From contig OZ252021.1 of assembly GCA_965247685.1 (NCBI GenBank), forward strand, positions 150,001 through 182,000: a stretch of 32,000 nucleotides of DNA, read 5' to 3'. Every line of letters begins with the position of its first letter. The stretch's first letter is position 1. The stretch comes from Bdellovibrionales bacterium (GTDB lineage Bacteria > Bdellovibrionota > Bdellovibrionia > Bdellovibrionales > UBA1609). Below are positions 1,170 through 29,153 of this stretch, one piece after another. The notes beneath the pieces were generated by a model that made no database searches, was not told the origin of the DNA, and was given only the letters and a program-made list of their open reading frames with translations. The translations under genes were made by a program, and so were the position numbers.

Positions 1170-3146
1170 TTAAGGACAATTGAAATATTTAAAAAGACTT
1201 CTTTGCCACTCTGCTTGGATTTTAAACCACATATGTCCCGAAATATATTCCGATTGAGTTCTTATTGCATATTCTCGGGCTGGAGAATCCTCTATATAAT
1301 TCAAATCAAGAATATAAGAAGGCTTCCAATCTGAGGGAGGATAAACGCAATGAGACATACGATTTCGACCTACAGCCCACACTAAAATATCAGGAGCTTC
1401 TTTGGATCCTTTTCTGATTTGACCGCTTCGGGCAGAGTAAAAAGAAAATTTGAAACTATTTTTTTGAAAATCAAAATCTTTATCAAGATATTTTAAAAGT
1501 TTTTCTTCTGTGAAAGTTTTTTCCAAAACATTCAGAACTCCTCCTCCTCCCCACACCGCTACGGATAAACTTTTCTTCTTGTGTTTGCTTATATTCTCGA
1601 TCCACATTCTTAAAAACAATGCTCCATAAACATCTGTATTAAAGCCTTTCCATTTTCCTTTGATCAAAATGATCGTATTCAAAGATTTCCAGTCTAAATC
1701 ACTCAGACAGAGTTTAAGATTTGAGAAACTATGAGTAGTGACTTGTGGATTTGTATCCCTCTCTTGAGAATTGAACTCTTTAAAGAGTTGATAAAAACTC
1801 TTTTTTAATGGAGATGTAATAGCTGCAAATTTCATACCCAAATTTTCTAAAATTTTTAAATTCAAAGAGTTCGCTTCTTTTTCCTTCATCAAAATTTTCA
1901 ATGTAAGAAGTTGCTTATCTTTAAAAAATAAAAATTGTTCAGAAGGAGTGATAGAGTGCTCAATAGGATTCCCTAACACACAAGCAAAACCTTTTGGTGA
2001 AGAATGGGTTACAAACCGACAGGCTTCTGCTATCACGGGTTGATCCAAAACCCCTTGATGAGTATCTTCTCGAAGAAAATAAATCAATTGCTGAGTTCCA
2101 AATAGGAGCCGATACCACTTCCACCTTCCATCAGCAGATCGAGGATGAAAAGAGCGATTTCCTTCTTTTTGCCATAAGTACCCTTTCCACAACTCTTCAA
2201 AAGAAAATATTTCGACAGCCAGCTTGCAATGAATATTTTTTTCTTTAGGAAATTTATTGAACAAAGATTCCAAAGTCTCGTCTTTTTCTCTAGTATGCAA
2301 AGAGTATATAGGTTGGGAGATTTTTTTAAAGAATGTATTCTCCAAACCCCACTCTAACGGCCAATCTATAGTCATCTCCTGAGAAGAAGAGTTGACCATC
2401 TTTTCCAAATAAGATTTAAAATGAGAATCTTTTTTTTCTCTAAAACTAAATAAAAGGTTTTGAATAGGTATTTTTTTTAACACTTTTTCTATAGAAGAGA
2501 TCGAAATCTCACTATTTTTTAATTCAAAAAACCTAAAACCCATTTGAATTTTATGATTCAAAAAGTTTTCTAGCTTCTCTTCATTAGGAAATTGTTTTTC
2601 TTGAAGAGTCAAAACACCATTAGTAAAAGGTAGACTTTTTTCTCCAAAAAACACCTGATCCTCTACTCCAAAACCTTGAAATCCATCCAAACGAGTCCAC
2701 ACTAAATCTCTTTGGCTTTGGTATAAAAGCTCTCTTTTTTTATATAATTCCTGATACTCACTCAAAGAGTCTTTATTTGAAAGAAGACGAGGACGATTAA
2801 AAAAAATTCTCCCATCGGAATCGCTTGTTCTTTTGAGGTGAATCACAGTACAAAAGTGAGGAATATCATCACTATACCCTGCACCTAAAGAAATCAATAC
2901 AATTCCATTAAAGTTTTTTGATTTTTGAAGACATTGCTGAAAAACTTTTTTCTCTACTTTTCTAAATGAGCTCTCTCCTTTTTCAAAAAGATGAAAAATT
3001 GTTTTTTGAGTCTTTTTCTCAATTTGTTGATCCACATCAAAGGTTAAAATAGGTAAATGATTTTCTTCAAAATGATTCTGAACAGTTTTTATCCATGAGG
3101 TTTTACCAGTCCCTCGATGACCAATAATCACATAAATATTTTTCAC
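1170..3146 (-). CDS. fused shikimate kinase / type I 3-dehydroquinate dehydratase / shikimate dehydrogenase (AroK-AroD-AroE-like)
   Basis: 658 aa. The N-terminus has the P-loop GHRGTGKTS, then FDVDQQIE...IFHLFEKGESSFRKVE and RPRL, which follow the shikimate kinase pattern. The middle has IDWPLEW...IYSLHTRE...HCKLAVE (divergent type I dehydroquinase pattern). The C-terminal third has VLGNPIEHSITPSEQ, AAITSPLKKS and FNTDVYG (AroE motifs). The start overlaps the aroA stop by 4 nt. Confidence 0.75.
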   Translation of the reverse strand: MKNIYVIIGHRGTGKTSWIKTVQNHFEENHLPILTFDVDQQIEKKTQKTIFHLFEKGESSFRKVEKKVFQQCLQKSKNFNGIVLISLGAGYSDDIPHFCTVIHLKRTSDSDGRIFFNRPRLLSNKDSLSEYQELYKKRELLYQSQRDLVWTRLDGFQGFGVEDQVFFGEKSLPFTNGVLTLQEKQFPNEEKLENFLNHKIQMGFRFFELKNSEISISSIEKVLKKIPIQNLLFSFREKKDSHFKSYLEKMVNSSSQEMTIDWPLEWGLENTFFKKISQPIYSLHTREKDETLESLFNKFPKEKNIHCKLAVEIFSFEELWKGYLWQKEGNRSFHPRSADGRWKWYRLLFGTQQLIYFLREDTHQGVLDQPVIAEACRFVTHSSPKGFACVLGNPIEHSITPSEQFLFFKDKQLLTLKILMKEKEANSLNLKILENLGMKFAAITSPLKKSFYQLFKEFNSQERDTNPQVTTHSFSNLKLCLSDLDWKSLNTIILIKGKWKGFNTDVYGALFLRMWIENISKHKKKSLSVAVWGGGGVLNVLEKTFTEEKLLKYLDKDFDFQKNSFKFSFYSARSGQIRKGSKEAPDILVWAVGRNRMSHCVYPPSDWKPSYILDLNYIEDSPAREYAIRTQSEYISGHMWFKIQAEWQRSLFKYFNCP

Positions 3147-5674: not shown

Positions 5675-6220
5675 TTATAGATACCACTGCATTCCAACAG
5701 TTAAATATAAGTGCGGACTGAGCCATCCTTCTTCATCAGGCCGCCGCCTTTCATTAGATAAAGTATATCTTTCACGTGACGTCGTTATAATCAGTCCATT
5801 GCTCAAACCTATCCTTAGAAGAGCATGAAAACCTCCATCCGTAATACGTCTTCTCAAAAATAGTCCTATGTCATGTCCAATATTGATATTAATTCCACCT
5901 CCTTCTTCACTCCCTCCAAGAGAAAAATAGGTATCAACACCATAACTCAAATTAGAACTGGAATCAAAATCGTAGGAATATCCAAAAAGGAGTGGCATCC
6001 TCGCTGCTCGATAACCAGATAAACCTATATTAAACGCACCCACATACTGATCTTGTAAAATATTCCCTCCATAAGATATAAATAACGGATAATTGAATTC
6101 TGTCAGTCTTGTATCAACAGATAGACCCAAATTAAACGAAAGAAAACCTCCTAACTTACCTAATCCTCTTGCTTGAGTACAGAATCCTGTAAACAACAAT
6201 ATCATCAACAAGTACTTCAC
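5675..6220 (-). CDS. hypothetical exported protein, possible small beta-barrel outer membrane protein
   Basis: 181 aa with the signal-like N-terminus MKYLLMILLFTGFCTQARG. Gly/Ser/Tyr-rich alternating segments and a C-terminal aromatic end (..GMQWYL). No recognised domain. Confidence 0.4.
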   Translation of the reverse strand: MKYLLMILLFTGFCTQARGLGKLGGFLSFNLGLSVDTRLTEFNYPLFISYGGNILQDQYVGAFNIGLSGYRAARMPLLFGYSYDFDSSSNLSYGVDTYFSLGGSEEGGGININIGHDIGLFLRRRITDGGFHALLRIGLSNGLIITTSRERYTLSNERRRPDEEGWLSPHLYLTVGMQWYL

Positions 6221-6545
6221 GAGAAACCTCCTAGAATATATCTGATATGAATGCTATAGAATTTTGGAAATTATGTCAACAGTATAAAAATTATGGAGAG
6301 AGAATAGACCTTTGGCATAATTATTGGACAGGTAAATATTTAAATTTCATTAAAAATCTTCCTTTTTTTAAATCATTTTAGATTAATTAATTTTTCTAAA
6401 AGACTGTTTCTTTATTTATGGATTACTTAAAAATTTCCTCGCTCTAGATACCATGATCTGCTGGAGTCTAACTGATTTTTCAAATTCTCCCAATCTGTAA
6501 AGAGAAAAATTGCTCGTGATCAAAATAAAAAAATGATCATTAATG

Positions 6546-6872
6546 AAATGAAAAAATATTCATTCTTCGCTCACAGCTTAATACAAAGAAAAATATCAGA
6601 GTGTCTTTTATTCTAAAAAGAAGAGAGGCTCACTTATTGTTAGGTAGAAAAGATCTGAATCTTTCCTTATAATCAATTTTGAAACATTTAAAACACTTTG
6701 ATTTGTAAAATTTTCACTTTGTAAAATTTTCACTATCTTATAAGAATTTTAGAGAAAATAAATTGAATAAGATAACCTCCTGAACAATATATCTAAGAAA
6801 AATTTACAAAGCATAGAAATTATTATAGACACTATGATTAATTTATACTAATAACAAATGAACTCCAAACAA
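6546..6872 (+). repeat. copy A of a ~325-nt duplicated noncoding leader (partner at 12238-12560)
   Basis: By-eye alignment to 12238-12560 shows long identical blocks: aaatgaaaaaata.tcattcttcgctcacagcttaatacaaagaaaaatatca, ctcacttattgttag, actttgatttgtaaaattttcact, gaaaataaattgaataa.ataacctcc, tagacactatga.taat.tatactaa, caaatgaact. There are a few indels. Copy A has an extra internal duplication of ttgtaaaattttcact. It ends ~10 nt before the TTG start at 6883. Confidence 0.85.
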
Positions 6873-6882
6873 GGAAAATAGA

Positions 6883-8349
6883 TTGAAAATCACCTGCAAA
6901 TATCTTCTGTTTTTATTTTTTGCGCCTTTACTGACTTCAGGATGTGGAGTTTTCACAGAGAAACCACAGAAAGTAAGTGACATATGCAGTCATGCCAATA
7001 GGCTCGATCAAGATTATTTAGAATGTGGAATAAGCCTTGAGATGAATACACCTGGAACAATTAAGCTCAAACTGTCTGGAAAAAACGATCTGCTCAAAAG
7101 CCTGAAAGGACAAGAACTATCATTAGTTACAGAAGCAGACCTTTCAAATAACCCAGAAATGATATCTATTCCTGAATTTATTCATCATTTCCCAAATCTA
7201 AAAACTCTCAATATTTCTCATACTAAAATTTCCAGTTGGGATGAGAATATCTGCCAGCTTGAAAAACTAGAAAAACTCATTGGAAGAAATAACCACTACG
7301 TGGATGATGAGGTACCCTTTCATACTTTCTGCCTTAAAAATCTAAAAGTTCTGGATATGTCTGACAGTCACATTCGGTATGTAGATGAATACATCGGAAA
7401 ACTCACTCACCTCAAAGAATTACACCTATCCGGCAATGACTTAATTCTTGCCCCCTTTATGCTCGTTTCACTAAAGAACTTACAACTAGTAGATTTTCAA
7501 GATAATTCACAATTTATTAATGAAGACTTAGCAACAATACAAAGTTGTGAAGATGAAGATGATGATGACAAAGAAGATTGTCAGGAAGATATTGCGGAGT
7601 CTTTTGAATGTGAGTTTTTTAACCCTATTCCATTTCAAAGAAAAAAACCTTTTAGAACACTATACATAGACCTCGTAGATTCCAGTGAAGTTATTTCAAA
7701 AGCTTGTGAAGAGGATAATTCTCCCATTTGCCCTCATTTTGTAAAACCTTGTAAACATATTACTAATGGAGTTCAAAGAAGAGAATGTATGCTCAATGAA
7801 TTTGAGAGCTTAAATATACATCCAGATCTATGGATTAATAGGGATAGATGTTATACATCTTGGGCAAAATGGTATAATGATTTTGAAGAATTTCCAGAAC
7901 TTTTAGAGTATTCTCTAGCTGGCAGAACCATTAGAGAGTTGCTATTTAGAACTAACTATAGTGAAGATAGATATAAGGATTCCTTAGGAAGAAAAATATT
8001 TGGAAAAGCTTATGGCGGTCCCGATATGACTTGTAATGTCTGGAACCCTGTTTCGGATATCGATTTTGAATTGTTTGGGATAACCCTGTTGGATAATAAG
8101 CCTGATCGAATAGGCCCTCAAAGATTCGAAGTCTTTCCTAAAATAAAGAGAGATATGTATGCTTCCGAGTTTGTCATACTTGCTAACAGAGAAGGATGGT
8201 TGGATTGGAATTTTTTTTATGACGAAGAAACGAAGCGATCAAAATCTATAGACTATATCAGTCAAACGAATCAATGTCCTCACTTGCCAGAGATAAGGGA
8301 AAAAGTGAAAAGATGGATGGAGGAAGTATGGGGCAAAGAACAAAATTAA
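6883..8349 (+). CDS. leucine-rich-repeat lipoprotein with acidic linker and Cys-rich C-terminal domain of unknown function
   Basis: 488 aa with a TTG start 7 nt after aagga. Lipoprotein signal MKITCKYLLFLFFAPLLTSG|C. At least 4-5 LRR units (NLKTLNISHTKIS, LEKLEKLIGRNN, NLKVLDMSDSHI, HLKELHLSGNDL, NLQLVDFQDNS). Acidic run CEDEDDDDKEDCQEDIAE. The ~250-aa C-terminal region has many Cys and Trp. Confidence 0.75.
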   Translation: MKITCKYLLFLFFAPLLTSGCGVFTEKPQKVSDICSHANRLDQDYLECGISLEMNTPGTIKLKLSGKNDLLKSLKGQELSLVTEADLSNNPEMISIPEFIHHFPNLKTLNISHTKISSWDENICQLEKLEKLIGRNNHYVDDEVPFHTFCLKNLKVLDMSDSHIRYVDEYIGKLTHLKELHLSGNDLILAPFMLVSLKNLQLVDFQDNSQFINEDLATIQSCEDEDDDDKEDCQEDIAESFECEFFNPIPFQRKKPFRTLYIDLVDSSEVISKACEEDNSPICPHFVKPCKHITNGVQRRECMLNEFESLNIHPDLWINRDRCYTSWAKWYNDFEEFPELLEYSLAGRTIRELLFRTNYSEDRYKDSLGRKIFGKAYGGPDMTCNVWNPVSDIDFELFGITLLDNKPDRIGPQRFEVFPKIKRDMYASEFVILANREGWLDWNFFYDEETKRSKSIDYISQTNQCPHLPEIREKVKRWMEEVWGKEQN

Positions 8350-11300
8350 TAACTTTAAAGACAAGTTTAAATTATATTTTATCTCTTTCTTTGGTGTTGA
8401 CACCTTATTCTGTTTTAGCAACAAGCTCTTCTTCCCAACAGTCTCTTGATGCTGAATCCTCCATTGAACCCTCCAGTGAATCCTCCATTGAACCCTCCAG
8501 TGAGTCCTCCATTGAATCCTTCTTGGATCAGCTCACAAAGAACCCTAGCTTAGATACTAATAACCCAGAAGTTCAAAGAGCTATTCAAGTAATAAACGAT
8601 TTGCATCAGGATATTATGACAGGAAACCTGTCTCAAGAGGAAAATTCAGAAGTAAGCAAAGAATTTGACACTCTCCGTTTAAGCAATCAGGTTGCAACTG
8701 TCTACGACGCACATGGAAATGTGTCTGGAGTAATACCTTTTGACTCCGAAGGCCATGTGAACAACAATTCATCAGAGAAAATTTTATCTATTGAAGTGAC
8801 GTTTGAATCTGGCTTGCTCACTTTTATCGGAGTTTCCATTCAGGGAGAAGAAGGCCAGGAAAAAAACGTCATAGAAAAACACGTCAGTGTCATTCAAACA
8901 ATTAAAAATATCAATGAAAAAAATGTATTAGAAAAATATGTTTATGATAAAGAAATCTTAGCTATTCTCTACCAAACAAAGGGTGGAATTGAACTTATTT
9001 TATATCACATGAACTACGCCACTGAACTCATCGGAAGGGCTCCCATTCCATCTACATCCTTTTACTTAGAAGAGTCTGATCTCCCAGAAAAGCTGGAATT
9101 AAAATTTGTTTCTCAAGAGAACCCCATTCGCAATTTAAATTTAGATAAGTATCCTATAAGAAACTCTGATGGTCAAAGTCTCCTGCAAGCTGGAGATTTG
9201 ATCATTTATAGCGAAGAAACAAAAAATTTTTCTATGCTCATAACAAGAGAAAATATCTATGAACGTATAAAGGAGATGTATGAAAGCCTTAACCTGCTTC
9301 TAGAAATTTCAAATTCCAGCAACACTTTAGAAAGACTGTTAGAAATATCCAGAGAACAGAAAGATATCAAAGCACATAGTCCAGAACAATTGATGTATGA
9401 TCTCATTAATAGAGTAACCAATCGAAATGCACTATATTTTCTAGATCGATATAGAAATTCAATCACTGGTATAGTACATCTTTTAGATACCTCAACCAAT
9501 GAACAGGAGAGAAATATCTTCATTCCTAAACAAGGGAGTGAAAATAAACCGACCGATGAAAAAAAACCTGAAGAAAATAAGAGAAAAATAAAGAGTTTTG
9601 TTTCTAAACCAATGGACTTCTTCAAATATATTAAATATTTATATCGTAAAGACTTAGCCCATAAAGGGAAGAAAGATCTCTTAACTTTTGAACAATGGAA
9701 AGAGAAAAAGACCGAAGGAAAACAATCTGAAGGTTTCATCAAAGAACACAAACTGGAATTAGCAGTTGCAACAATTGGAGCAGCAGCGGCTGTTTGGTAT
9801 TTTTCCACTTTAAAAGGTTTAGATAACTCTCCTTCAAGTGATGTACTACAGAATATGATCTTGTTAGGTGCAGGTGTATTGGGTTTACTTTACGGAGTCA
9901 CTGCTATTTTTATCCCATTGCTCAAAGGGATTGATAAATTGATTCCACCTGAGCTAAAATCTTTCAAACCTTTCAAACATTCCTTACGCAAAACTATTGA
10001 AAAGTGGCAGGGAAAAGATAAAAAAACATTAATCACTGGGCTGGGCTTTAAATTAGTAGCAGTCTTACTCCCTCTTTTTCACAGGTTATCTCAACTGGGG
10101 GGAGTCCCAAGTGTATTTAACGCATTAACTCGAGGAGTAAACTTCAAGAGTGCTATTGCCACTATTGAATCAGGCTCTGATTTAGGCAAAAAGCTTGGTT
10201 TAACAAAAAATATGAACTTATTTGGAGTGAGAAACCAAGACAAGAAGACAGTTGCTGTGGATTTGATGAGTCAAAGAGATCAAAGAGTCGAACATGTAGC
10301 TCGACTCATGGCTATGCGTGCAATGTTAGGCCACTCACATTTTGACGCTTCTGCAAGATTCTTAGGTACACTCAACTTGGATTTAGAGAAGCTCATAAAG
10401 AACCCTAACTTTGTGTCAGATTTCCAATGGATTTCTCAAACACTAGGTACACATATCTTAGAATCAAAGCAGATTAATGCCTTTCAAGGCCTGTTACAAT
10501 GGGATCAAGAGTCTCTTAATGATTTTTATAAAAGGGCACAAGAATTGTATAAGAAATCTCAAACAATACCTCGTGCACAAAAGATTGGTAAAAACACATG
10601 GGAAAACACTAAACATTTTGTATTCCAAAAAGTTTTTAATTGGAACTCAGCTCAAGCAGAAAGATTAAACAATATGATTCCATCTCACACGATTGCTAAT
10701 CAATTCCATTTAGGATTAATTATAGACCACATTACTATGGTTATGCTTCCTTTGACACTAGCCACGCCCAGAGGAGCCGACGGTATTCTATCAGGAGTTG
10801 ATACGAATCTATTCTTTAATTCGAGCAGACCTCATCTCTTTGAAGCTATAATGAATATTGCCGCGCACGTCTTAGCTACGGGAAGACAACAATTAGTTGA
10901 TCTGAATGCACTAAACATTGAAAGACTAAGAACATTATTGCAAACACAAAAAGCAGATAATAAATTTCAATCAACACAACAAGAAGAAAAAATATCTGTT
11001 CCAACTTTCTGGTTTTCTTCTCTTAAGTTCCCATTTCAACTAGGTACTAAAATCCGTGAAGGCTCTCGTTTTGAAGAAAAAGTAGACATTGGATCTTATC
11101 TATGGAAACTCCTGACAACTAGTTATAGATTTTGGGGTGTTAGCCTCGTTTTTTTATTTACTGGCAGACAATTTTTGACCGCTTCTGGAGTAGATATGAA
11201 CATTTTAGGTGCATTATACTTCTTAGTAGGAGGTATAATCTATTTTGGATGGCCTCAAATGTGGTCGCTGATGCACAATCAATCGTTGAGCAAGAGACTT

Positions 11301-12236
11301 CAATTCAATAAAGAAAATATTGAACTCATCCGCTTTGTAGAACACAAATTAGAAAAGAATCTTTATTCAAACAGGCAACAGGGAATTGATCAAGATTTTC
11401 AAAGAGTTATTACTGCCTTTCGATCACTTTATAGAACTTTTAACCAGATTTATTCAACAACAGTATCCCGTAAACTGTTTCGAACAGATCATAAAGGAAC
11501 AATACTTGACTCTTTGAGAAAAGGCATAGATCCAAGTGTCTTTAAACCTCTCCATACTCTTCTCAATACGAATGACACCAAGGAAGCTAAAAAGATAACT
11601 CAGGATCTGAACAAGCTACTAGATACTAAGCAACAAGAAGAACTAATAAAAATCATTAGTGATATCGTTCAAAATAATCCTGGAGATAAAAACCCTAATT
11701 CTAAATACTTCCCAACTGCAGAGAACAACGTTGCACTTTCCTCTCATCTACTATTGACTCTGGGGATATTCAGTAACTTAGCTTTTGTTTATCTCTCGAC
11801 GGATAGTTTTAATCAAGCACAAGTTAATATTACAAACATCTTACAATTATTTTTTGCCACACTTGGAGGAATTCTATCTTACAAACTGATAACATCTAAA
11901 TCTCTTCCGAATCATAAGGAAAATATTCAAAGATACTATGACAGACTAGCTGGACCGAAAATAAAAAATATTTTATTTTCTGGAAACCCAATACAACAAG
12001 AAATAGTAATTATTGATGCTCTTCGCAAAGCTGGTATAATCACTATGCGTCAACTAAGAAAATTAACAACAGAAGAACTCCTAGCTATACCTGATATAGG
12101 ACAGAAAAGAGTACAAATTATTAGAGAAAGAATGGCAGGTATCCCCTCTTCAAATTCGAAATTTCATTTCATTAGAGATGGAGTGAATAAATGTAAAGCT
12201 GTTCTTCGAAGAATTAACAACACAACAAATGAATAA
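8328..12236 (+). CDS. ~1300-aa exported/polytopic membrane protein of unknown function with C-terminal RpoA-alphaCTD-like HhH module
   Basis: The ORF is open from 8274. I prefer ATG 8328 (GGAGGA at 8319-8324); ATG 8313 is also possible. Signal-like N-terminus MGQRTKLITLKTSLNYILSLSLVLTPYSVLA and an SSIEPSSE repeat. A ~450-aa soluble region is followed by several hydrophobic helices (LAVATIGAAAAVWYFSTL, MILLGAGVLGLLYGVTAIFIPLL, LITGLGFKLVAVLLPLF, ILGALYFLVGGIIYFGW, LLLTLGIFSNLAFVYL, ILQLFFATLGGILSY). The C-terminal HhH module is at 12000-12134. It overlaps the LRR gene by 22 nt. Confidence 0.8.
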   Translation: MGQRTKLITLKTSLNYILSLSLVLTPYSVLATSSSSQQSLDAESSIEPSSESSIEPSSESSIESFLDQLTKNPSLDTNNPEVQRAIQVINDLHQDIMTGNLSQEENSEVSKEFDTLRLSNQVATVYDAHGNVSGVIPFDSEGHVNNNSSEKILSIEVTFESGLLTFIGVSIQGEEGQEKNVIEKHVSVIQTIKNINEKNVLEKYVYDKEILAILYQTKGGIELILYHMNYATELIGRAPIPSTSFYLEESDLPEKLELKFVSQENPIRNLNLDKYPIRNSDGQSLLQAGDLIIYSEETKNFSMLITRENIYERIKEMYESLNLLLEISNSSNTLERLLEISREQKDIKAHSPEQLMYDLINRVTNRNALYFLDRYRNSITGIVHLLDTSTNEQERNIFIPKQGSENKPTDEKKPEENKRKIKSFVSKPMDFFKYIKYLYRKDLAHKGKKDLLTFEQWKEKKTEGKQSEGFIKEHKLELAVATIGAAAAVWYFSTLKGLDNSPSSDVLQNMILLGAGVLGLLYGVTAIFIPLLKGIDKLIPPELKSFKPFKHSLRKTIEKWQGKDKKTLITGLGFKLVAVLLPLFHRLSQLGGVPSVFNALTRGVNFKSAIATIESGSDLGKKLGLTKNMNLFGVRNQDKKTVAVDLMSQRDQRVEHVARLMAMRAMLGHSHFDASARFLGTLNLDLEKLIKNPNFVSDFQWISQTLGTHILESKQINAFQGLLQWDQESLNDFYKRAQELYKKSQTIPRAQKIGKNTWENTKHFVFQKVFNWNSAQAERLNNMIPSHTIANQFHLGLIIDHITMVMLPLTLATPRGADGILSGVDTNLFFNSSRPHLFEAIMNIAAHVLATGRQQLVDLNALNIERLRTLLQTQKADNKFQSTQQEEKISVPTFWFSSLKFPFQLGTKIREGSRFEEKVDIGSYLWKLLTTSYRFWGVSLVFLFTGRQFLTASGVDMNILGALYFLVGGIIYFGWPQMWSLMHNQSLSKRLQFNKENIELIRFVEHKLEKNLYSNRQQGIDQDFQRVITAFRSLYRTFNQIYSTTVSRKLFRTDHKGTILDSLRKGIDPSVFKPLHTLLNTNDTKEAKKITQDLNKLLDTKQQEELIKIISDIVQNNPGDKNPNSKYFPTAENNVALSSHLLLTLGIFSNLAFVYLSTDSFNQAQVNITNILQLFFATLGGILSYKLITSKSLPNHKENIQRYYDRLAGPKIKNILFSGNPIQQEIVIIDALRKAGIITMRQLRKLTTEELLAIPDIGQKRVQIIRERMAGIPSSNSKFHFIRDGVNKCKAVLRRINNTTNE
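8454..8520 (+). repeat. 24-bp in-frame tandem repeat (2.8 copies) encoding SSIEPSSE
   Basis: The unit gaatcctccattgaaccctccagt is repeated at 8454-8477 and 8478-8501. A partial variant (gagtcctccattgaatcct) follows to 8520. Confidence 0.9.
12000..12134 (+). other. alphaCTD-like helix-hairpin-helix module at the C-terminus of the giant protein
   Basis: EIVIIDALRKAGIITMRQLRKLTTEELLAIPDIGQKRVQIIRERM fits the L..AGI.T...L...T..ELL.I...G.K....I pattern of the RNA polymerase alpha C-terminal domain / HHH_5-type modules. The same module is repeated in the next gene. Confidence 0.6.
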
Positions 12237-12237
12237 G

Positions 12238-12560
12238 AAATGAAAAAATACTCATTCTTCGCTCACAGCTTAATACAAAGAAAAATATCAAAGTTTCTTT
12301 TATTCTAAAAAAAGAACAGCTCTTAAAAAGAGGAGAAACTCACTTATTGTTAGATAGGAGAGCTTTAAATCTTTCCTTTAATGCTCAATTTTGAAACACT
12401 TTGATTTGTAAAATTTTCACTATTTTAAGAGTTTTTAAGAAAATAAATTGAATAAAATAACCTCCAAACAAATATATCTAATAAAAATTTCCAATAGTAG
12501 AAATTATCGTAGACACTATGAGTAATCTATACTAACAACACAACAAATGAACTTTAAACA
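12238..12560 (+). repeat. copy B of the duplicated ~325-nt leader (partner at 6546-6872)
   Basis: Begins 2 nt after the stop of the giant gene (TAA 12234-12236) and ends ~40 nt before the ATG at 12601. See copy A for the shared blocks. Confidence 0.85.
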
Positions 12561-12600
12561 ATTCTTCAAAGAATTAACAACAAAACATAAGGAGTAAGAA

Positions 12601-14199
12601 ATGAAAAATAGAAAACCTACCTACAAGGTTAAAGCAATAGACAAATCCACTGTATTTGTATTCTTTGCTGTTTCTTTAATCTTCTCTAGTCATTTTGTCT
12701 ATGCAGTAAGGCCTCTTAATCCAGAGAATTCAATGCGTCTACCTCCGCCTATTATTACTCCGCCTACTATTATTACAGATAGTAATAGTAGGGGGATAAG
12801 TTTTGTTCCAGCAGACACGATAAAAGATAAACTTTTGAACGCTGGCATAAAAACTGTTGGACAATTACACAATTTAACCCCAAAACAACTTAAAGCTATA
12901 CTGGGATCTAAAGATGCAAAACTTGTTCAAAAAGAACTTAATCGGCTAAATATTACTTCCCCTCTCAAAAGAAGTATTGAGGATTTATTTCCTAAAACAG
13001 AAGAACAAGAAATAGTTGCAGCACTTTCTAAAGCTGGCATAAAAAATATTAAAAACCTGCAAGAGTCAACCCCAGAACAACTTCAAGCTATATTGGGAAA
13101 GGAAAAAGCACAACTTATCCTAGAAAGACTTGAACAAACAACTTTGCCTCCTATCTCCGAAATAAGTATTGAGTATTTATTTCCTAAAACAGAACAACAA
13201 AAAATAGTTAAAGCACTTTCTAAAGCTGGCATAAAAACTCTTGGAGATCTGAAAAAATTAACTCAAAGCGAGCTTCGAACTATAAGTGGTCTAAGAGAGA
13301 AAGGTGTACAAAGCATTATAGATGGACTCAAACAACAAGGTATCTCCCTTTCTTCAAAACCGACTCTAAGCAAAAGAATAATTACAGGGACAACTTCTGC
13401 AGCTCAAAGGACAGCTTCTGGGGCAACTTCTTTGGCTCAAACTGTAGTAGATGGGACAGCTTCTGGAGCAACTTCTGTAGTTAAAGGGGCAACTTTTGCA
13501 GCTCAAAGGACAGCTTCTGGGGCAACTTCTTTGGCTCAAACTGTAGTAGATGGGACAGCTTCTGGAGCAACTTCTGTAGTTAAAGGGGCAACTTCTTTGG
13601 CTCAAACTGTAGTAGATGGGACAGCTTCTGGAGCAGCTTCTATAGTTAAAGGGACAACTTCTGTAGTTAAAAGGACAGGAGGAGCTCTTATTCCTAAAGA
13701 AAAGCCCACAGTTGATCTTAGAGAAGGTATTGAAAATTTTTTAGCTACTCCCAAAAGCGAAATCGCCGAAGTGAGTACTGAAATTGAACAATTATTTCCT
13801 AACAACAAAAGTATAGTTGAAGCACTTTCTAAAGCTGGCATAAAAACTCTTGAAGATCTGAACAATTTAACTCGAAAAGAGCTTCTAGCTATAAAAGGTA
13901 TAGGAAAGAGAAGTGTGGAAATTATTCTAGGAATAATAGGAACTCCCTCTTCATTAGAGGAAATATTTGGAAGAAGTATAGCTAAAGCACTTTTTAAAGC
14001 TGGCGTAGACACTCTTGCAGATCTGGACAAGTTAACTCCAGAAGAGATTCTAGATATACAGGGTATAGGAGAGAAAAGTCTGAAAATTATTATAGAAAGA
14101 ACGAGAACTACTCCCCCTTCAACAAAATTGGGGACACTTGGAAAAGCAGCTCAAAAATGTATGCAAGTTGTCGGGTCCCTCCTACCAAAGAAAAAATAA
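12601..14199 (+). CDS. exported or membrane-anchored protein with five alphaCTD-like HhH modules and a central Thr/Ala/Ser/Gly tandem repeat
   Basis: 532 aa, with AAGGAG 6 nt upstream of the ATG. K-rich n-region plus hydrophobic core STVFVFFAVSLIFSSHFVYA|V, then PPPIITPPTIIT. HhH modules lie at about 12814-12948, 12979-13134, 13163-13341, 13783-13938 and 13954-14100 (e.g. IVEALSKAGIKTLEDLNNLTRKELLAIKGIGKRSVEIILGII). The DNA block gcactttctaaagctggcataaaaa recurs at three of them. Confidence 0.8.
   Translation: MKNRKPTYKVKAIDKSTVFVFFAVSLIFSSHFVYAVRPLNPENSMRLPPPIITPPTIITDSNSRGISFVPADTIKDKLLNAGIKTVGQLHNLTPKQLKAILGSKDAKLVQKELNRLNITSPLKRSIEDLFPKTEEQEIVAALSKAGIKNIKNLQESTPEQLQAILGKEKAQLILERLEQTTLPPISEISIEYLFPKTEQQKIVKALSKAGIKTLGDLKKLTQSELRTISGLREKGVQSIIDGLKQQGISLSSKPTLSKRIITGTTSAAQRTASGATSLAQTVVDGTASGATSVVKGATFAAQRTASGATSLAQTVVDGTASGATSVVKGATSLAQTVVDGTASGAASIVKGTTSVVKRTGGALIPKEKPTVDLREGIENFLATPKSEIAEVSTEIEQLFPNNKSIVEALSKAGIKTLEDLNNLTRKELLAIKGIGKRSVEIILGIIGTPSSLEEIFGRSIAKALFKAGVDTLADLDKLTPEEILDIQGIGEKSLKIIIERTRTTPPSTKLGTLGKAAQKCMQVVGSLLPKKK
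13393..13676 (+). repeat. in-frame 99-bp tandem repeat (2 full near-identical copies plus truncated or degenerate copies)
   Basis: 13393-13491 and 13492-13590 differ by a single base (acttctgca vs acttttgca). The third copy (from 13591) lacks the first 33 nt of the unit and then degenerates. The encoded unit is TSAAQRTASGATSLAQTVVDGTASGATSVVKGA. Confidence 0.92.
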
Positions 14200-14223
14200 A
14201 AAGGTTCAATACTCTAAATCAAG

Positions 14224-14257
14224 AAGTGATTTGCTATTTATAAATAGCAAATCACTT
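14224..14257. terminator. perfect 34-nt palindrome between convergent genes; likely bidirectional intrinsic terminator
   Basis: aagtgatttgctattta / taaatagcaaatcactt are exact reverse complements. The palindrome lies between the stop of the HhH gene (14199) and the stop of smc (14272). The flanking U-tracts are only modest. Confidence 0.55.
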
Positions 14258-14271
14258 TCTTTGAGACTGTG

Positions 14272-22929: not shown

Positions 22930-23520
22930 TCAGTACTTAGAACAGTTTTCAGAAAGAATTGAAAATTTTCTTAAAACATTAATATTTTTTGCAGACTCCA
23001 ATCCTTTGAACACTTGATTATCCAAGAGAGATAAAGTCTCTTTTCCATAATAATAATTGATCTTATTTTGAATCTGACAAAATGTGCTAACATCATTCAA
23101 TGACAACCATGCCAAAGGATTAGATAACTCATCTTGAGGTCCTTCACCCCAAGAAATAGCCACAAACAATTTGTAAGTCTCGAACATAGCTTCCTGAACT
23201 TCTCTTAGTTGGGTGAGCCTTGTATGACACTTGGAATCTACACTACGAAAAGATTTAATCAACTTATAAATATTAGAAAACAAAGAATAACAACCTCCAG
23301 GGGTGTTATTATTCTTACAATCCTCTATAGAAATTTTGAATTGAGATAAGGATTTTTTACCAGAACCTTTTTTAAATAAAAAAGCTTGATTATCGTCTTT
23401 ATAAACTTTTAATTGTAAATCACAAATAGATTGAGGAGGTTTATATAAAACCACTAAAAACACACCTGAAACAAGCAAAATCGCCACTAATAAAAACTTA
23501 GGAATGGAATATAAATTCAT
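22930..23520 (-). CDS. hypothetical membrane-anchored or exported protein
   Basis: 196 aa with the N-terminal hydrophobic segment FLLVAILLVSGVFLVVL and six Cys spread through the soluble part. No recognised domain. Confidence 0.5.
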   Translation of the reverse strand: MNLYSIPKFLLVAILLVSGVFLVVLYKPPQSICDLQLKVYKDDNQAFLFKKGSGKKSLSQFKISIEDCKNNNTPGGCYSLFSNIYKLIKSFRSVDSKCHTRLTQLREVQEAMFETYKLFVAISWGEGPQDELSNPLAWLSLNDVSTFCQIQNKINYYYGKETLSLLDNQVFKGLESAKNINVLRKFSILSENCSKY

Positions 23521-23541: not shown

Positions 23542-24117
23542 TCAGTGAATCTTTCGTCCACAATTTCTATAATTCTCTTTAAATGGATGGTAAACTTTGA
23601 TGTTAGATTTTTGAATCCAAACACTGTCATCTTTGGGACAGAAATAAAAACCATACTGTGTTTTTTGTTGTTTTAAATTATAAGCATGAGAAATGTAAAT
23701 AAGCTCTCTGTTCAAATTTTTAAGCTGAAATAAATTGTTTTTCATATCCTCTTTATTGAAAGCAATAATATTTAAATACTCTTTCATTTGCTGTATTTGT
23801 CGATGAAGATAAGATTTCTCATGGTAGGCAAGCTCTCTTTCATTAAAAACCTGAACACGGTTGAGTTCTTCAATCAGTTGATTAATTTTCTGTTTAAATT
23901 GATCTTTATTGTTACTTTTAACAGTCTCATGAACCTGTCCCATCATGAGCATCATTTGTTCTAAAGATTGCGTGATATTAGAGCTCAACTGACTTTTTAA
24001 GCTGACACGAGATACAGGAAGCGAAAATGCTCTCACACTTATAAAAAAACAACAAAAAAATAAAAAAAAGCTGGAACCGTAAAGCCCCAGCTTTTTATTT
24101 AAAATATAAGATAACAT
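23542..24117 (-). CDS. hypothetical exported helical protein with a C-terminal Cys motif reminiscent of DUF3347-type metal-associated proteins
   Basis: 191 aa with a hydrophobic N-terminus and a helical, Q/K/E-rich body. The C-terminus FYFCPKDDSVWIQKSNIKVYHPFKENYRNCGRKIH resembles the CPM....W......I.NPY.....CG motif as I recall it from DUF3347 proteins. The family call is tentative. Confidence 0.4.
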   Translation of the reverse strand: MLSYILNKKLGLYGSSFFLFFCCFFISVRAFSLPVSRVSLKSQLSSNITQSLEQMMLMMGQVHETVKSNNKDQFKQKINQLIEELNRVQVFNERELAYHEKSYLHRQIQQMKEYLNIIAFNKEDMKNNLFQLKNLNRELIYISHAYNLKQQKTQYGFYFCPKDDSVWIQKSNIKVYHPFKENYRNCGRKIH

Positions 24118-24127
24118 TCTTACTTAA

Positions 24128-25246
24128 TTAAAATTTCATAGACAGGTTTGCGTAAGCTTGCCCTTTATAAGAGTCACCTTGCTTCAACACACCCGCTACA
24201 ATTTTACTAGATACAGAAGAGTTGATTTTATTCTTCAAAGATAAATCTACTTCAATATCTCCGTCTTCTACAGTTTTATTTCCTTTGTGGAAATAATGTC
24301 CTGATATACCTAAAGCTGAATTAGAATCCATCATGTAGTAAGCACCAGCTTTACCATATATGAGACCGTTACCAAATTGAGCAACATCAAGCTTACCAGC
24401 ATTTCTGTGAACATCATAATATAGAGGAGCATAATCTGCACCATCCGCATGACCACCCACATACAATTTAAGCATAGCAGAGTTATCAAGTTCCATTTTG
24501 TACTTGATGTAGCCATCAACAAGATAGCTCTTTCCAATATCATCTGGATTTACAGAATCCACAGAAGCAGTCACACTGTAACTTAGACCGTCCATCATAT
24601 CACCACCGACTGTAGCCCCCGCATAAATAGGTGCATCGTCGCTACTCTCACCTTCTTCCATGACATAGTCGTTGATATCGGTAACAATCACATGAAGGTT
24701 TGCATCTTTGAACGCATCAGATAAAGAACGAATATCTATAGACGCAATCAAAAGATTACCAAAATCAACAATTGAAGTACTAGCAAATCCCTTTACAACA
24801 CCAAGATCCACTCCAATACTTTCTGAACTATAAGTCAGAATAGCACCTGATAACATCGTTGGTAGCATTTGGAAATCGTTAGAACCGATCACTAATCCAT
24901 TTGCAACCTCATATTGAGTTGTTCCCAATCTGACCATGAACTCATCAGAGATCATCCAGTCCCCATAAGCAAAAAATGAGGGAGTTGAGAGACCGATATC
25001 TAAACCTGACTGATTCAGATACATTGATGCGTTGGCTTCGAAAGACTCACTAGCTCTGAAAGAACTAGAAATTTTAGTTCTGAATTCAGGGTGCAGTGTT
25101 TGAGTCAACTGGTCCATAACACCATCGCCTGACAGATCGTCAGATCCAGTTGTTAGTCTAAAACGAACTTCTCCACTAAAATCTGCATCTACAGCCATTG
25201 TCTCAAATACAGACAACACCATTAATGCTATAATTAATAATTTCAT
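24128..25246 (-). CDS. porin-like outer membrane beta-barrel protein
   Basis: 372 aa with the signal peptide MKLLIIALMVLSVFETMAVDA. It has alternating amphipathic strands rich in G/S/Y/D and a terminal ..YANLSMKF (C-terminal Phe typical of OMPs). Confidence 0.6.
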   Translation of the reverse strand: MKLLIIALMVLSVFETMAVDADFSGEVRFRLTTGSDDLSGDGVMDQLTQTLHPEFRTKISSSFRASESFEANASMYLNQSGLDIGLSTPSFFAYGDWMISDEFMVRLGTTQYEVANGLVIGSNDFQMLPTMLSGAILTYSSESIGVDLGVVKGFASTSIVDFGNLLIASIDIRSLSDAFKDANLHVIVTDINDYVMEEGESSDDAPIYAGATVGGDMMDGLSYSVTASVDSVNPDDIGKSYLVDGYIKYKMELDNSAMLKLYVGGHADGADYAPLYYDVHRNAGKLDVAQFGNGLIYGKAGAYYMMDSNSALGISGHYFHKGNKTVEDGDIEVDLSLKNKINSSVSSKIVAGVLKQGDSYKGQAYANLSMKF

Positions 25247-26775: not shown

Positions 26776-27474
26776 ATGAAAAATATATTTATTATTTGTT
26801 TTTATATATTTACCTCTAGTGCTTTTGCAAAGGGAAATGATTTTTATACGATTCTAAATTCCACAGAACACGTAGCAAAGGTAACGATGAATTTCTGGTC
26901 TTTTACAAGGAACTTTGCTTTACAAGAGGCATTGACTCCTTCAGAGTGCATTAGAATATATAAACATTATGATTTCCAGTCATATGAGTACGATTATTAT
27001 GGACTCGAAAAAATAATTAAGTTCACATTCGATGAAAAAATAAAAAAACCGTTTCATTCACTTTTTATAAAGTGGATATTTTTACCAAGTTCTCTAAGCA
27101 TAAAGATTGATGATGAATCAGCTTACGAACGTTTTTTGGGTCTAGATCTTATGAACTATGAGGTGATGGGAGAATCGAATAGTTTATTGAAGTTTTTTGA
27201 TACTTTTAGCTTAATTCATGATGATGTTCCCAATAAAAGGGATAGGTATTGTAGAATATTTATTCCAGAGAAGGCATTGTTTGTAGGTGGAGATGGGAAC
27301 ACTTATCTTCATGATGCAATTTTGGATGGGGATATAGGCAAAGTAGAAGAGTTGTTGGAAAATAAAGCAGAGCGCAGTTTAAAAAATAGTGATGGAATAA
27401 CTCCTATCGAATTAGCGATCCAGGAAGGAAATTCGCGTATAGTTAAAATATTGAGATATCATGGAGCAAGATAA
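26776..27474 (+). CDS. secreted ankyrin-repeat protein
   Basis: 232 aa with the signal peptide MKNIFIICFYIFTSSAFA. The C-terminal ~65 aa fit two ANK repeats (GNTYLHDAILDGDIGKVEELLENKAERSLKNSDGITPIELAIQEGNSRIVKILRYHGA). Confidence 0.7.
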   Translation: MKNIFIICFYIFTSSAFAKGNDFYTILNSTEHVAKVTMNFWSFTRNFALQEALTPSECIRIYKHYDFQSYEYDYYGLEKIIKFTFDEKIKKPFHSLFIKWIFLPSSLSIKIDDESAYERFLGLDLMNYEVMGESNSLLKFFDTFSLIHDDVPNKRDRYCRIFIPEKALFVGGDGNTYLHDAILDGDIGKVEELLENKAERSLKNSDGITPIELAIQEGNSRIVKILRYHGAR

Positions 27475-27806
27475 AGATGCAACTCTCCTTTATATAGTAT
27501 TCCAGTTAAAACTATAGGCACAATATTGGAAAATCAAGCAAGAAAATATATTCATCAAGAAATTTTAAAAGTAGAGAAATTATCACTTAGCAACTAAATC
27601 CTATGAAGTTATCGAACTGAGGAAAAAGTAATAAAAACTCCGTTTAATGAGAATTAACAAAATGACCAACAAAAAGTGTATTTTTGTCAAACGGTTTTGT
27701 TATTTGAGCTTCATGCTTATCTCTAAGTTCACTTCTTAAAAATAAAAAACATCCCATAGATTTTTTTTTAGACAAAAATCCTTCTATACTGATAACATTA
27801 ATATTG

Positions 27807-28442
27807 ATGAAACAAACTCTTCTTCTTTTTCTAGTTTTATTTACACTTTCTACATCCGCCCACCCTGTGATCTACAAGGGTGGTTGGGTCTACTGGACTA
27901 CACTAACAAGCCATTCCAATAAACAACGAGTCAGCTACACCTTTCACCCTCATTTTTCTGTCGAAATGAATACCGAAGGTATTCTCCAGCCTCACCCGTA
28001 TCGAGACTACAAAATCGGAATCAATGCCCTATTGAAACGGTGGTATCTAAAAGACTCACAAGGAAATATCTACCTTTCCCTTCATGGAGGATTCTATAAG
28101 AATCAAAGTACAGGCTATGTACTGCGTCCACAAATTGAAATGGACTGGGAGTCTCGAAAACTTTACACAGCTTTTAGTGCTTCCATGACTTACTTTGAAC
28201 ATAGTAATGATCCTATCTATCAATGGATGTACAGAATAGGAGTAGCTCCCTATGTGGCCAGAATGAAAGAACTCCAAACTTGGTTTGTTTTTCAATTGGA
28301 CTATACGATTTTGAAGACAAATTCCAAAAAGTATCCAGTAGTTTTCACTCCTATGTTGCGATTCTTTTACAGAAATACCCTTTGGGAAACAGGGGCAAAT
28401 TTAGATGGAGATTTCTTTATAACCCTTATGCTTCACTATTAA
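27807..28442 (+). CDS. hypothetical exported protein, possible outer membrane beta-barrel
   Basis: The ORF is listed from TTG 27804; ATG 27807 gives MKQTLLLFLVLFTLSTSA|HP. It is aromatic-rich with alternating segments and ends ..FFITLMLHY. Confidence 0.45.
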   Translation: MKQTLLLFLVLFTLSTSAHPVIYKGGWVYWTTLTSHSNKQRVSYTFHPHFSVEMNTEGILQPHPYRDYKIGINALLKRWYLKDSQGNIYLSLHGGFYKNQSTGYVLRPQIEMDWESRKLYTAFSASMTYFEHSNDPIYQWMYRIGVAPYVARMKELQTWFVFQLDYTILKTNSKKYPVVFTPMLRFFYRNTLWETGANLDGDFFITLMLHY

Positions 28443-28482
28443 TAAAAATGATGATATGCTAAAATCAACCAAGGAGGTTAAA

Positions 28483-28761
28483 ATGAAAAAAATAATCGTA
28501 GCAGCTGCCATCCTTTTTCTTTCCACCCCAGCCTTAGCAGGAAAGGTCATTGTTGATGTACCAGGAATGGTTTGTCAAATATGTGTCCAAGGTATAAAGA
28601 AAGCCTTTAAAGATGTTGTAAAGAATTCGGATACAGATATTGATGTCAATCTAGACACAAAAAAAGTGACTCTCAACCTTGAAAAAAACTTAACAGATTC
28701 AGAAATCAAAAAGAGAGTGAAGGACACGGGCTACAATGCTCAATCGATTCATAGAAAATAA
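28483..28761 (+). CDS. periplasmic heavy-metal-associated (HMA) domain protein, MerP-like
   Basis: AAGGAGG lies 5 nt upstream of ATG 28483. Signal peptide MKKIIVAAAILFLSTPALAG, followed by the GMVCQICV metal-binding motif (GMxCxxC). Confidence 0.8.
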   Translation: MKKIIVAAAILFLSTPALAGKVIVDVPGMVCQICVQGIKKAFKDVVKNSDTDIDVNLDTKKVTLNLEKNLTDSEIKKRVKDTGYNAQSIHRK

Positions 28762-28766
28762 CAATT

Positions 28767-29153
28767 ATGAATAATTCACCCTTTATTAAACAAGTCGCTT
28801 CTTATTTTTCTCTTTTTGGATCTCTTACTACCCTTTTTTGCTGTGCTCTTCCTATTCTATTTGTATCTATTGGGATGGGAGCTGTTTTTGCTTCCATCAC
28901 AGCCACTATTCCGCAAATTAATATTCTTGTAGAACATAAAAATATTCTCTTTGCTGTTACTGGAATTTTACTCATTCTATCTTACACACTCATGACCCGC
29001 TCTCAACCTCAGGAATGCCCGATTGATCCCAGTCTGCAAAAAGCCTGTCAAACCTCTAAACCTTTGACAAAGAAGATTTTTTGGTTTTCTGTAGCAATCT
29101 ACACTACGGGGGCTTTATTCTCTTACATTCTGCCAAGCATTTTATATGGTTAA
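28767..29153 (+). CDS. MerT-like inner-membrane metal transport protein
   Basis: 128 aa. TM1 carries the vicinal FCCALPILF (MerT CCxxP motif). A second Cys pair (ECPIDPSLQKAC) sits in the loop after TM2. The C-terminal KKIFWFSVAIYTTGALFSYILPSILY parallels the MerT C-terminus. Confidence 0.7.
   Translation: MNNSPFIKQVASYFSLFGSLTTLFCCALPILFVSIGMGAVFASITATIPQINILVEHKNILFAVTGILLILSYTLMTRSQPQECPIDPSLQKACQTSKPLTKKIFWFSVAIYTTGALFSYILPSILYG

Follow-up and report, generated by a model that had tools for sequence, protein, structure and literature searches.

Three genes on the plus strand of a 32,000-nucleotide (nt) stretch from a Bdellovibrionales bacterium (contig OZ252021.1, 150,001-182,000; this whole stretch serves as the reference and is called the window, and positions follow its numbering) form a module that combines a leucine-rich repeat (LRR) lipoprotein, a giant membrane protein, an array of helix-hairpin-helix (HhH) domains and a short C-terminal tail, a combination without counterpart among described systems. 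Genes 1 and 2, encoding the LRR lipoprotein and the giant, constitute a translationally coupled and conserved pair whose products are both predicted to be Sec-exported. In the clade to which the window belongs, an (HhH)2 domain was inserted before the tail of the giant as a late add-on, and gene 3 is predicted to encode a signal peptide followed by five copies of this domain and by the same tail, here called the KC tail after its lysine-cysteine (K-C) dipeptide. The export calls for all three proteins were made with sequence heuristics and conservation.

The LRR lipoprotein and its giant partner

Features of genes 1 and 2 (amino acids, aa):
6883-8349, plus strand: gene 1, LRR lipoprotein of 488 aa (Pfam LRR_4, conserved lipobox, AlphaFold2)
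6883-6945, plus strand: predicted signal peptide of gene 1 with lipobox Cys21 (pattern LLTSG-C21)
7126-7545, plus strand: LRR domain of gene 1, residues 82-221 (Pfam, AlphaFold2)
7561-8343, plus strand: Cys-rich helical C-domain of gene 1, residues 227-487 (AlphaFold2)
8328-12236, plus strand: gene 2, giant exported polytopic membrane protein of 1302 aa (family profile, AlphaFold2, hydropathy)
8328-8420, plus strand: predicted signal peptide of the giant (conserved N-terminus)
8453-8520, plus strand: SSIEPSSE repeat of the giant (24-bp tandem repeat, 2.8 copies), just 3' of the signal peptide
8688-9242, plus strand: beta-rich domain of the giant, residues 121-305 (AlphaFold2)
9246-9542, plus strand: helical domain of the giant, residues 307-405 (AlphaFold2)
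coordinates none, plus strand: disordered linker of the giant, residues 408-468 (AlphaFold2)
9753-11894, plus strand: membrane region of the giant, residues 476-1189, with 8-9 hydrophobic helices (hydropathy)

The 3' end of gene 1 overlaps gene 2 by 22 nt, and a GGAGGA at 8319-8324 is located just 5' of the ATG of the giant (8328), whose open reading frame (ORF) opens at 8274. The giant on record (P0001) starts 15 nt upstream, at 8313, within the Shine-Dalgarno region of this ATG. Gene 1 starts with a TTG (6883), while its recorded version P0005 (435 aa, NCBI and ENA) begins at Met54 and so omits 6883-7041 together with the signal peptide; the TTG is the better start because the signal peptide and lipobox that it includes align with those of homologues. 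A preliminary description of the window had pointed to three same-strand ORFs, to the overlap with its GGAGGA, to a terminator-like palindrome 3' of gene 3 and to export-type N-termini on all three proteins; each of these is present, the palindrome having a perfect 15-bp stem and the lipobox and putative signal-type starts recurring in homologues.

Relatives of the module are scarce. A word-indexed search of 5.8 billion proteins returned the giant itself and one relative of 38% identity, and for gene 3 the result was nearly as empty. Using a two-species giant profile, a HMMER scan of 1.84 billion cluster representatives gave 99 matches, 17 of them at E<1e-30; about 50 of the 99 are giants of 1,100-1,600 residues, and the others match the HhH/tail end only. 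Profile scans of genome contigs with the giant alignment and with an SMC alignment found no relative. One giant homologue of 23% identity, MDE0151992.1, is labelled 'Bdellovibrionales bacterium'.

Among these relatives, the LRR gene stands directly 5' of the giant gene in all nine informative pairs (the window and loci L001, L003, L004 with two in tandem, L005, L007/L008 and L014), at a spacing of -22 to +45 nt and in at least five genomic contexts; L009-L011, where the contigs offer under 420 bp of sequence 5' of the giant, were left out of this count. Three loci (L001, L003 and L013) share the gene order of the window (aro ... smc-ppdK) and therefore add little independent evidence. Other neighbours surround the pairs of L004/L005, L007 and L014 (giant identities of 28%, 21%, 25% and 20%), the LRR protein of L007 being 34% identical to that of the window. 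At L004 (10001-20067) the whole pair is tandemly duplicated: an LRR protein of 462 aa and a giant of 1183 aa are followed by paralogues, namely an LRR protein of 408 aa with a plain signal peptide and a giant of 1242 aa that is 21% identical to the window giant. As adjacency has been kept across this divergence and through tandem duplication, there is good evidence that the LRR protein and the giant form a functional pair. Homologues of genes 1 and 2 are thus neighbours in 9/9 pairs; gene 3 is confined to the clade of the window (window, L001, L003 and L013). Between the window and L001, identity is 73% for SMC, 47% for the LRR protein, 42% for the giant and about 25% for gene 3.

The assignment of gene 1 to LRR lipoproteins, proposed earlier, is borne out by Pfam matches above cut-off (LRR_4 at E 2.6e-12 and 47 bits, cut-off 27; LRR_8 at 33.3 bits, cut-off 27), by a solenoid of alternating strand/helix repeats in the AlphaFold2 model and by the lipobox LLTSG-C21, which fits the PROSITE-type pattern of bacterial lipoproteins. 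The lipobox Cys recurs in 15 of the 18 members of the LRR family, and the remaining three have A-x-A type sites. The model (predicted local distance difference test, pLDDT, 80.8; predicted template modelling score, pTM, 0.79) comprises a small beta cap, six or seven LRRs and a helical, Cys-rich C-domain of 260 residues, the last of which is common to the 17 full-length homologues. Foldseek matches in the PDB are confined to the LRR part (4tzh at E 8e-8; Leptospira LRR lipoproteins, SHOC2 and InlB; all with TMq <= 0.25), and the same search found no PDB fold relative of the C-domain. Leptospira LRR lipoproteins (LIC12234, LIC10831 and others) and LRRs of the internalin/SHOC2 type are accordingly the closest solved folds for residues ~82-221 and include exported bacterial LRR proteins, yet gene 1 differs from the Leptospira proteins and the internalins in its unmatched C-domain and its obligate giant partner. 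The mature protein is acidic (isoelectric point, pI, 4.9; net charge -28) and contains 14 Cys.

All 36 aligned giants open with a basic n-region, which is followed by hydrophobic residues (consensus LS.QL...P.Y.YA) and by a cleavage site with small residues, of the Y/F/H-A type; the SSIEPSSE stretch that follows in the window is missing from the 38%-identical homologue P0002. In the AlphaFold2 model of residues 104-1302, built from the 36 sequences (pLDDT 78.8, pTM 0.76), everything beyond the disordered linker is helical. Family-averaged hydropathy gives eight clear helices (476-494, 511-529, 569-587, 793-811, 933-951, 955-973, 1140-1158 and 1171-1189) and a borderline ninth (840-858), three helix pairs forming tight hairpins. 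P241, G620, L780, R815 and C1289 are invariant, and D800, H801, R815, H836, N843 and H847 form an apparent conserved polar cluster in or beside the fourth hydrophobic helix. Pfam found nothing but HhH over the 36 giants, and that in four; a PDB profile search with the family gave no match, and Foldseek returned none at E<=1e-3 in the PDB or BFVD, the beta domain giving weak propeller-like echoes only. The giant core thus belongs to no Pfam or PDB family and, like the C-domain of the LRR protein, is without sequence or fold relatives at the sensitivity used. A literature search found no description of the giant family, in line with the preliminary view that no described system had been matched.

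The KC tail and the HhH arrays

Features of the giant C-terminus and of gene 3:
11988-12134, plus strand: alphaCTD-like (HhH)2 domain of the giant, residues ~1221-1269, following the last hydrophobic helix and preceding the tail
12162-12233, plus strand: KC tail of the giant (FHFIRDGVNKCKAVLRRINNTTNE), a basic amphipathic helix that carries the invariant Cys1289
12601-14199, plus strand: gene 3, exported HhH-array protein of 532 aa, pI 9.8, net charge +24 (Pfam and PDB profile matches)
12601-12705, plus strand: predicted signal peptide of gene 3 (K-rich n-region, 14-residue h-region, VYA)
12796-12954, 12973-13140, 13165-13341, 13777-13950 and 13951-14115, plus strand: HhH modules 1-5 of gene 3 (HHH_5)
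13382-13663, plus strand: 99-bp tandem repeats of gene 3 (repeat search)
14116-14196, plus strand: KC tail of gene 3 (..AAQKCMQVVGSLLPKKK), by alignment to the giant tail
14224-14257, no strand: palindrome with a perfect 15-bp stem between the convergent gene 3 and smc, likely a bidirectional terminator

The most conserved feature of the giant family is its KC tail. Each of the 36 giants, with or without HhH, has one Cys at a distance of 4-13 residues from its C-terminus, in an alignment whose members are 15-43% identical, and this invariance at such divergence places the K-C dipeptide, first noticed in the basic tails of the giant and gene 3, beyond chance. The tail is predicted to be helical by AlphaFold2 and follows the pattern C-x-x-x-F/L, with a hydrophobic residue at +3/+4 and usually at +7 amid K/R (e.g., NKCKAVLRRI, NACRRLFTRS and RSCQSVFR). 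A matching tail ends gene 3 (QKCMQVVGSL), its orthologues (KKCKEIFNAI and SKCAGIFRSL) and other HhH arrays with signal peptides (SKCNKSFESI; P0137, P0147, P0148, P0161, P0162 and P0166). It is likewise found on ORFs beside giants that have signal-peptide-like N-termini and no HhH, at L001 15645-16118 (..NKCKKFFNKIKKL), L013 5264-6268 (a coiled-coil protein, ..NKCKRFFSKL) and L014 7326-8333 (..NSCKKIFSKH). In a scan of 471 ORFs with a hidden Markov model (HMM) of the tail, the matches all lay 0-8 residues from the C-terminus, unlike noise matches. Because it occurs on gene 3, on HhH arrays and on exported ORFs without HhH, always at the C-terminus, the KC tail behaves as a portable C-terminal tag.

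Two adjacent minus-strand ORFs of the window (22930-23520 and 23542-24117), without Pfam match, have hydrophobic N-termini and a lone near-terminal Cys (..SENCSKY and ..YRNCGRKIH). They may be degenerate KC-tail relatives, or the resemblance may be coincidence.

The HhH segments had been likened to the C-terminal domain of the RNA polymerase alpha subunit (alphaCTD) and related HHH modules, and the profiles agree. Gene 3 belongs to both HHH_5 (PF14520; E 1.2e-27, 96.6 bits, five stretches) and RNA_pol_A_CTD (PF03118; E 7e-23, 80.5 bits, cut-off 23.8), while the giant C-terminus falls just under the latter cut-off (E 2.5e-4, 21.1 bits; HHH_5 at E 2.7e-3, 18.6 bits) yet is homologous to the gene 3 modules. 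Its HhH helices are visible in the AlphaFold2 model, and among the four of 36 giants with HhH the best Pfam E-value is 2.8e-8. The fivefold recurrence of the giant's C-terminal module in gene 3 also stood up: the last 88 residues of the giant align with module 5 and the tail at 42% identity (E 5e-11) and more weakly with modules 4, 2 and 3, and the giant-family profile matches gene 3 in five stretches at E 2e-20.

RpoA, NusA and Hel308 are cytoplasmic proteins of transcription or helicase machines. RpoA alphaCTD, NusA AR repeats and Hel308 domain 5 provide the best profile and PDB matches of the module (Bacillus subtilis RpoA alphaCTD, 1z3e_B; the HhH domain of a Hel308-type helicase, 2zj2; the NusA C-terminal repeat at 3.7e-15), which also scores against SAM_EPH (1.3e-11). 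Unlike these proteins, the modules of gene 3 and the giant are placed behind predicted signal peptides, in arrays, without the alpha N-terminal domain (alpha-NTD) and fused to a membrane protein. Nor is gene 3 itself an RpoA: the rpoA equivalog models give 62-65 bits against cut-offs of 228-277, the NTD is absent and a signal peptide is present. The G-I-G-x-K/R hairpin is kept in modules 4 and 5 of gene 3 and in the giant module.

Gene 3 varies more than its neighbours do. The orthologues of L001 and L003 are 25-27% identical to it and have signal peptides, and their repeat spacers differ: the inter-module spacers are neutral, T/S/A/G-rich 99-bp repeats in the window, Lys-rich repeats in L001 and four near-identical units of ~145 residues in L003, with net charges of +24 (window), +57 (L003) and +117 (L001). 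In L013 (1-6268), from a sister strain of L001, gene 3 is broken up into ORFs of 195, 81 and 369 aa, and two further KC-tail ORFs with signal-peptide-like N-termini lie 3' of the broken gene, one of 213 aa with two HhH modules and the coiled-coil protein of 334 aa; the giant-smc interval is a hot spot of change. L012 (8690-18074), on a 791-kb contig of a different genome, holds eight tandem ORFs with the same Cys tail, seven of them with signal-peptide-like N-termini and six called as HhH (RNA_pol_A_CTD); on one side of them is a type II CRISPR-Cas9/Cas1/Cas2 locus and on the other an integrase gene of the phage type.

The preliminary description had proposed an apparatus that couples LRR recognition to nucleic-acid-binding HhH arrays. 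This proposal does not survive as a general function: HhH is missing from the LRR-giant pairs of L004 (both of them), L005 and L007, and is present in four of the 36 giants only, so any such coupling is a lineage-specific elaboration and not the conserved function.

What the module may do

The tentatively favoured reading, plausible rather than probable when taken as a whole chain, is that of an envelope scaffold tethering KC-tail clients. The LRR lipoprotein and the giant would form an envelope complex, and the KC tail would serve as a docking tag, recognised either by the LRR lipoprotein, which is acidic, or by the giant core, and perhaps locked by a disulfide through its invariant Cys. In this way the tag might tether tail-bearing exported clients in the periplasm or at the surface. 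The client in this genome would be the strongly basic HhH array, binding a polyanion, most likely DNA. Nucleic acid would in that case be retained at the envelope, where it could serve scavenging or matrix tethering; this would be an accessory function of a scaffold with a more general role. Charge complementarity was counted in favour of this reading, as the LRR protein has a net charge of -28 and the gene 3 proteins have +24, +57 and +117; so were the conserved pairing of genes 1 and 2, the size of the giant family, the distribution of the KC tail, the HhH matches, the duplicated upstream region and the export signals.

Several points weigh against this scaffold. Hydropathy gives eight or nine helices in the giant, and the positive-inside rule would put its basic C-tail in the cytoplasm; the argument for export of the tail comes from one source, the putative signal peptide of gene 3. 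With a cleaved signal peptide and eight helices, the N-domain and C-tail of the giant would both be outside the cytoplasm, in agreement with that signal peptide, while nine helices, or a weak first helix that does not span the membrane, would leave the basic tail in the cytoplasm. The gene 3 argument was judged the stronger of the two. Moreover, three of the five gene 3 modules have a degenerate second hairpin (LGSKD, LGKEK and SGLRE), and alphaCTD, NusA-AR and SAM-like modules can bind protein instead of DNA. The eight tail-bearing paralogues of L012 have no giant within 10 kb, and the E-values of the tail HMM are weak (0.001-0.25), as the tail is short.

A bolder version would make the KC tail a new type of C-terminal tag, a Cys-containing basic amphipathic helix without a transmembrane segment that marks giants, HhH arrays and coiled-coil proteins. 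The LRR lipoprotein and giant would be its dedicated receptor or anchor and would together form a trans-envelope system of a kind not known before, in a Bdellovibrionota-like lineage with reduced genomes, some members of which would display alphaCTD-type arrays outside the cytoplasm to capture nucleic acid; so extended, the reading is rather doubtful. Known Cys-type C-terminal signals are tripartite, with a motif, a transmembrane helix and an Arg cluster (Haft 2023, 10.1101/2023.06.07.544157). The KC tail resembles signals of the MYXO-CTERM type in its invariant Cys within a short C-terminal motif, in its basic end and in its occurrence on several exported proteins per genome, but it differs from them in lacking the transmembrane segment and Arg cluster, in the 4-13 mostly polar or basic residues that follow its Cys, and in having no linked CPBP protease and no NCBIfam match.

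It could alternatively be speculated that the module is a structural envelope lattice without any nucleic-acid role, in which HhH/SAM-like modules and tails make protein contacts and disulfide cross-links. The SAM_EPH and NusA repeat scores are those of protein-binding modules, and the degenerate second hairpins, the variable length of the repeat spacers and the 14 Cys of the mature LRR protein together with the invariant tail Cys count in favour of such a lattice. Yet the extreme charge of the gene 3 orthologues (+57 and +117) fits polyanion binding better, and the hairpin retained in modules 4 and 5 and in the giant speaks for the same, making a purely structural role improbable.

ComEA, with its single HHH_3 domain, acts together with ComEC and type IV pili. 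Gene 3 resembles it as a putative exported protein that would work through a DNA-binding fold of the HhH type without sequence specificity, and it could hold DNA in the periplasm. By extension, the module might be a machine for DNA uptake or capture, with ComEA-like HhH receptors, the giant as inner-membrane conduit or anchor, and DNA acquisition as the core function in a nutrient-dependent, reduced-genome bacterium. The predicted export of (HhH)2 modules, of which modules 4 and 5 have canonical GIG hairpins, the very basic gene 3 proteins and the sizes of the contigs with family members (0.8-2.0 Mb) are compatible with this, and ComEA, as a periplasmic HhH DNA ratchet (PMC3879209), offers a precedent. 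However, gene 3 departs from ComEA in its five alphaCTD/HHH_5-type modules, repeat spacers, Cys tail and lack of com context: HHH_3 (PF12836) scores E 0.19, and the match to TIGR01259 comE (E 2.4e-4) is weak, at 21 bits against a cut-off of 152, export being the one ComEA trait matched, by heuristics. Pfam detected no Competence/ComEC, OB or nuclease domain in the module proteins or the 36 giants, the window contains no pilus or com genes, and the pair is conserved without HhH (absent from 32 of the 36 giants) and without gene 3, which is limited to one clade. Uptake as the core function is therefore unlikely.

Another possibility, given little weight here, is that the proteins are effectors directed at a host or prey, the LRR protein and the K-rich HhH arrays acting in a nucleomodulin-like manner and the Cys tail serving as a membrane anchor, for example by S-acylation in the host. 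Ankyrin and LRR proteins are present in the window and at related loci, the exported proteins evolve fast compared with housekeeping proteins (SMC 73% against about 25% for gene 3 in L001), repeat expansion differs in each gene 3 orthologue, the spacers can be Lys-rich and H1-like, and the eight tandem paralogues of L012 lie near an integrase gene. Against this stand the lipobox on 15 of the 18 LRR proteins and the giant itself, which should stop in the bacterium's own inner membrane because 8-9 hydrophobic helices follow its Sec signal. Furthermore, the tail Cys, 4-13 residues from the end and followed by K/R/M/N, is not at position -4 of a CaaX box, in which two aliphatic residues come next, and no secretion-system genes are linked in the window. 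Type III substrates resembling Inc proteins were considered separately, as hairpin hydrophobic pairs exist, and rejected, since all members have Sec-type signal peptides.

Finally, a sorting role, with the giant as a membrane-embedded, sortase- or exosortase-like processor of the KC tail at its Cys, itself tagged, and the LRR lipoprotein as outer partner, is quite improbable: although tail-bearing exported proteins cluster beside the giant in a many-to-one pattern, the polar cluster from D800 to H847 lies in or beside membrane helices and Cys-containing C-terminal signals with dedicated polytopic enzymes are known (Haft 2023), the KC tail lacks the transmembrane segment found in all known tripartite signals, and Pfam, NCBIfam and Foldseek revealed no CPBP, exosortase or rhomboid similarity.

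Upstream repeat, flanking genes and meaning

Features upstream of genes 1 and 3:
6545-6860, plus strand: ~315-bp upstream region, copy 1, a non-coding direct repeat 5' of gene 1
12237-12545, plus strand: ~315-bp upstream region, copy 2, between the giant and gene 3
12546-12610, plus strand: degenerate copy (71% identity) of the giant 3' end/stop region (12186-12250), at the start of gene 3

The two copies of the upstream region are 96% identical over their first 75 nt, with a mean column identity of 82% over the aligned regions, and share an exact 39-mer (0 expected by chance). Each opens with a conserved mini-ORF of 22 codons (6548-6616 and 12240-12308; MKKYSFFAHSLIQRKISECLLF / ..SKFLLF). Copy 1 contains a 16-bp repeat, TTTGTAAAATTTTCAC, present twice (6702-6734), and a conserved motif, AAATTATTATAGACACTATGATTAATTTATACTAA (~6815-6850; AAATTATTATAGACAC...TATACTAA), which is also located upstream of the LRR gene in L003. 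Rfam found no match in the duplicated region. As this region precedes both genes, the transcription units of gene 1 and gene 3 should be co-regulated.

Gene 3 probably derived from the 3' end of the giant gene by duplication and then gained a signal peptide, as the co-linear order of HhH, linker and KC tail is retained. In L001 and L003, gene 3 adjoins the giant directly, without spacer or the ~360-bp insertion, and the degenerate copy at 12546-12610 is the footprint of a ~360-bp duplication or insertion. The simplest history would be that, later and in the lineage of the window, the upstream region of the operon itself was copied into the position before gene 3.

The module is flanked by housekeeping genes, with an aroB-aroA-aroK/E-aroC operon on one side and smc, ppdK and a class II aminoacyl-tRNA synthetase gene on the other, and G+C ranges from 28-39% across the window. 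A prophage or mobile island was rejected, the locus between aro and smc being syntenic in four genomes, as was an annotation artefact, given the conserved homologues and confident AlphaFold2 models. An Rfam scan of the whole window found three tRNAs and nothing else. PADLOC defence models gave two marginal matches (15.9 and 12 bits), none of them to the giant, so the module does not count as a defence system by these models. A PHROGs search returned nothing meaningful, its tape-measure match being rejected as repeat or low-complexity similarity.

Other genes of the window are recorded as separate observations. Within the aro operon, 1170-3146 (minus strand) encodes a 658-residue fusion of an N-terminal shikimate kinase domain and a shikimate dehydrogenase. 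Three ORFs without Pfam match, 5675-6220 (minus), 24128-25246 (minus) and 27804-28442 (plus), have signal-peptide-like N-termini and end in or beside an aromatic residue (..MQWYL, ..LSMKF and ..LMLHY), making them candidates for outer-membrane beta-barrels; the first sits between aroB and the module, where L001 and L003 have no called gene. At 28456-29153 (plus strand), a small exported protein with a GMVCQICV metal-binding-type motif precedes a membrane protein of 128 residues in which CC and C-P motifs occur, a pair resembling MerP/MerT-like metal handling. An ankyrin-repeat protein with a signal-peptide-like N-terminus is encoded at 26776-27474 (plus strand), and ankyrin and additional LRR genes occur in L005 too, as would fit a bacterium associated with a eukaryotic host.

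These findings have limited reach for now, as they come from a rare lineage that has not been cultured. If the proposed reading is true, the module would represent an undescribed envelope system with its own family of ~1,300-residue proteins, which pair obligately with an LRR lipoprotein, and with a new C-terminal tag common to several exported proteins. Few C-terminal signals for sorting or docking are listed for bacteria, and this tag would be a further type. The RNA polymerase alphaCTD fold would moreover be at work outside the cytoplasm, which is rare, and the module would bear on surface organisation, and possibly on nucleic-acid acquisition, in small-genome bacteria that are probably dependent on a host or prey.

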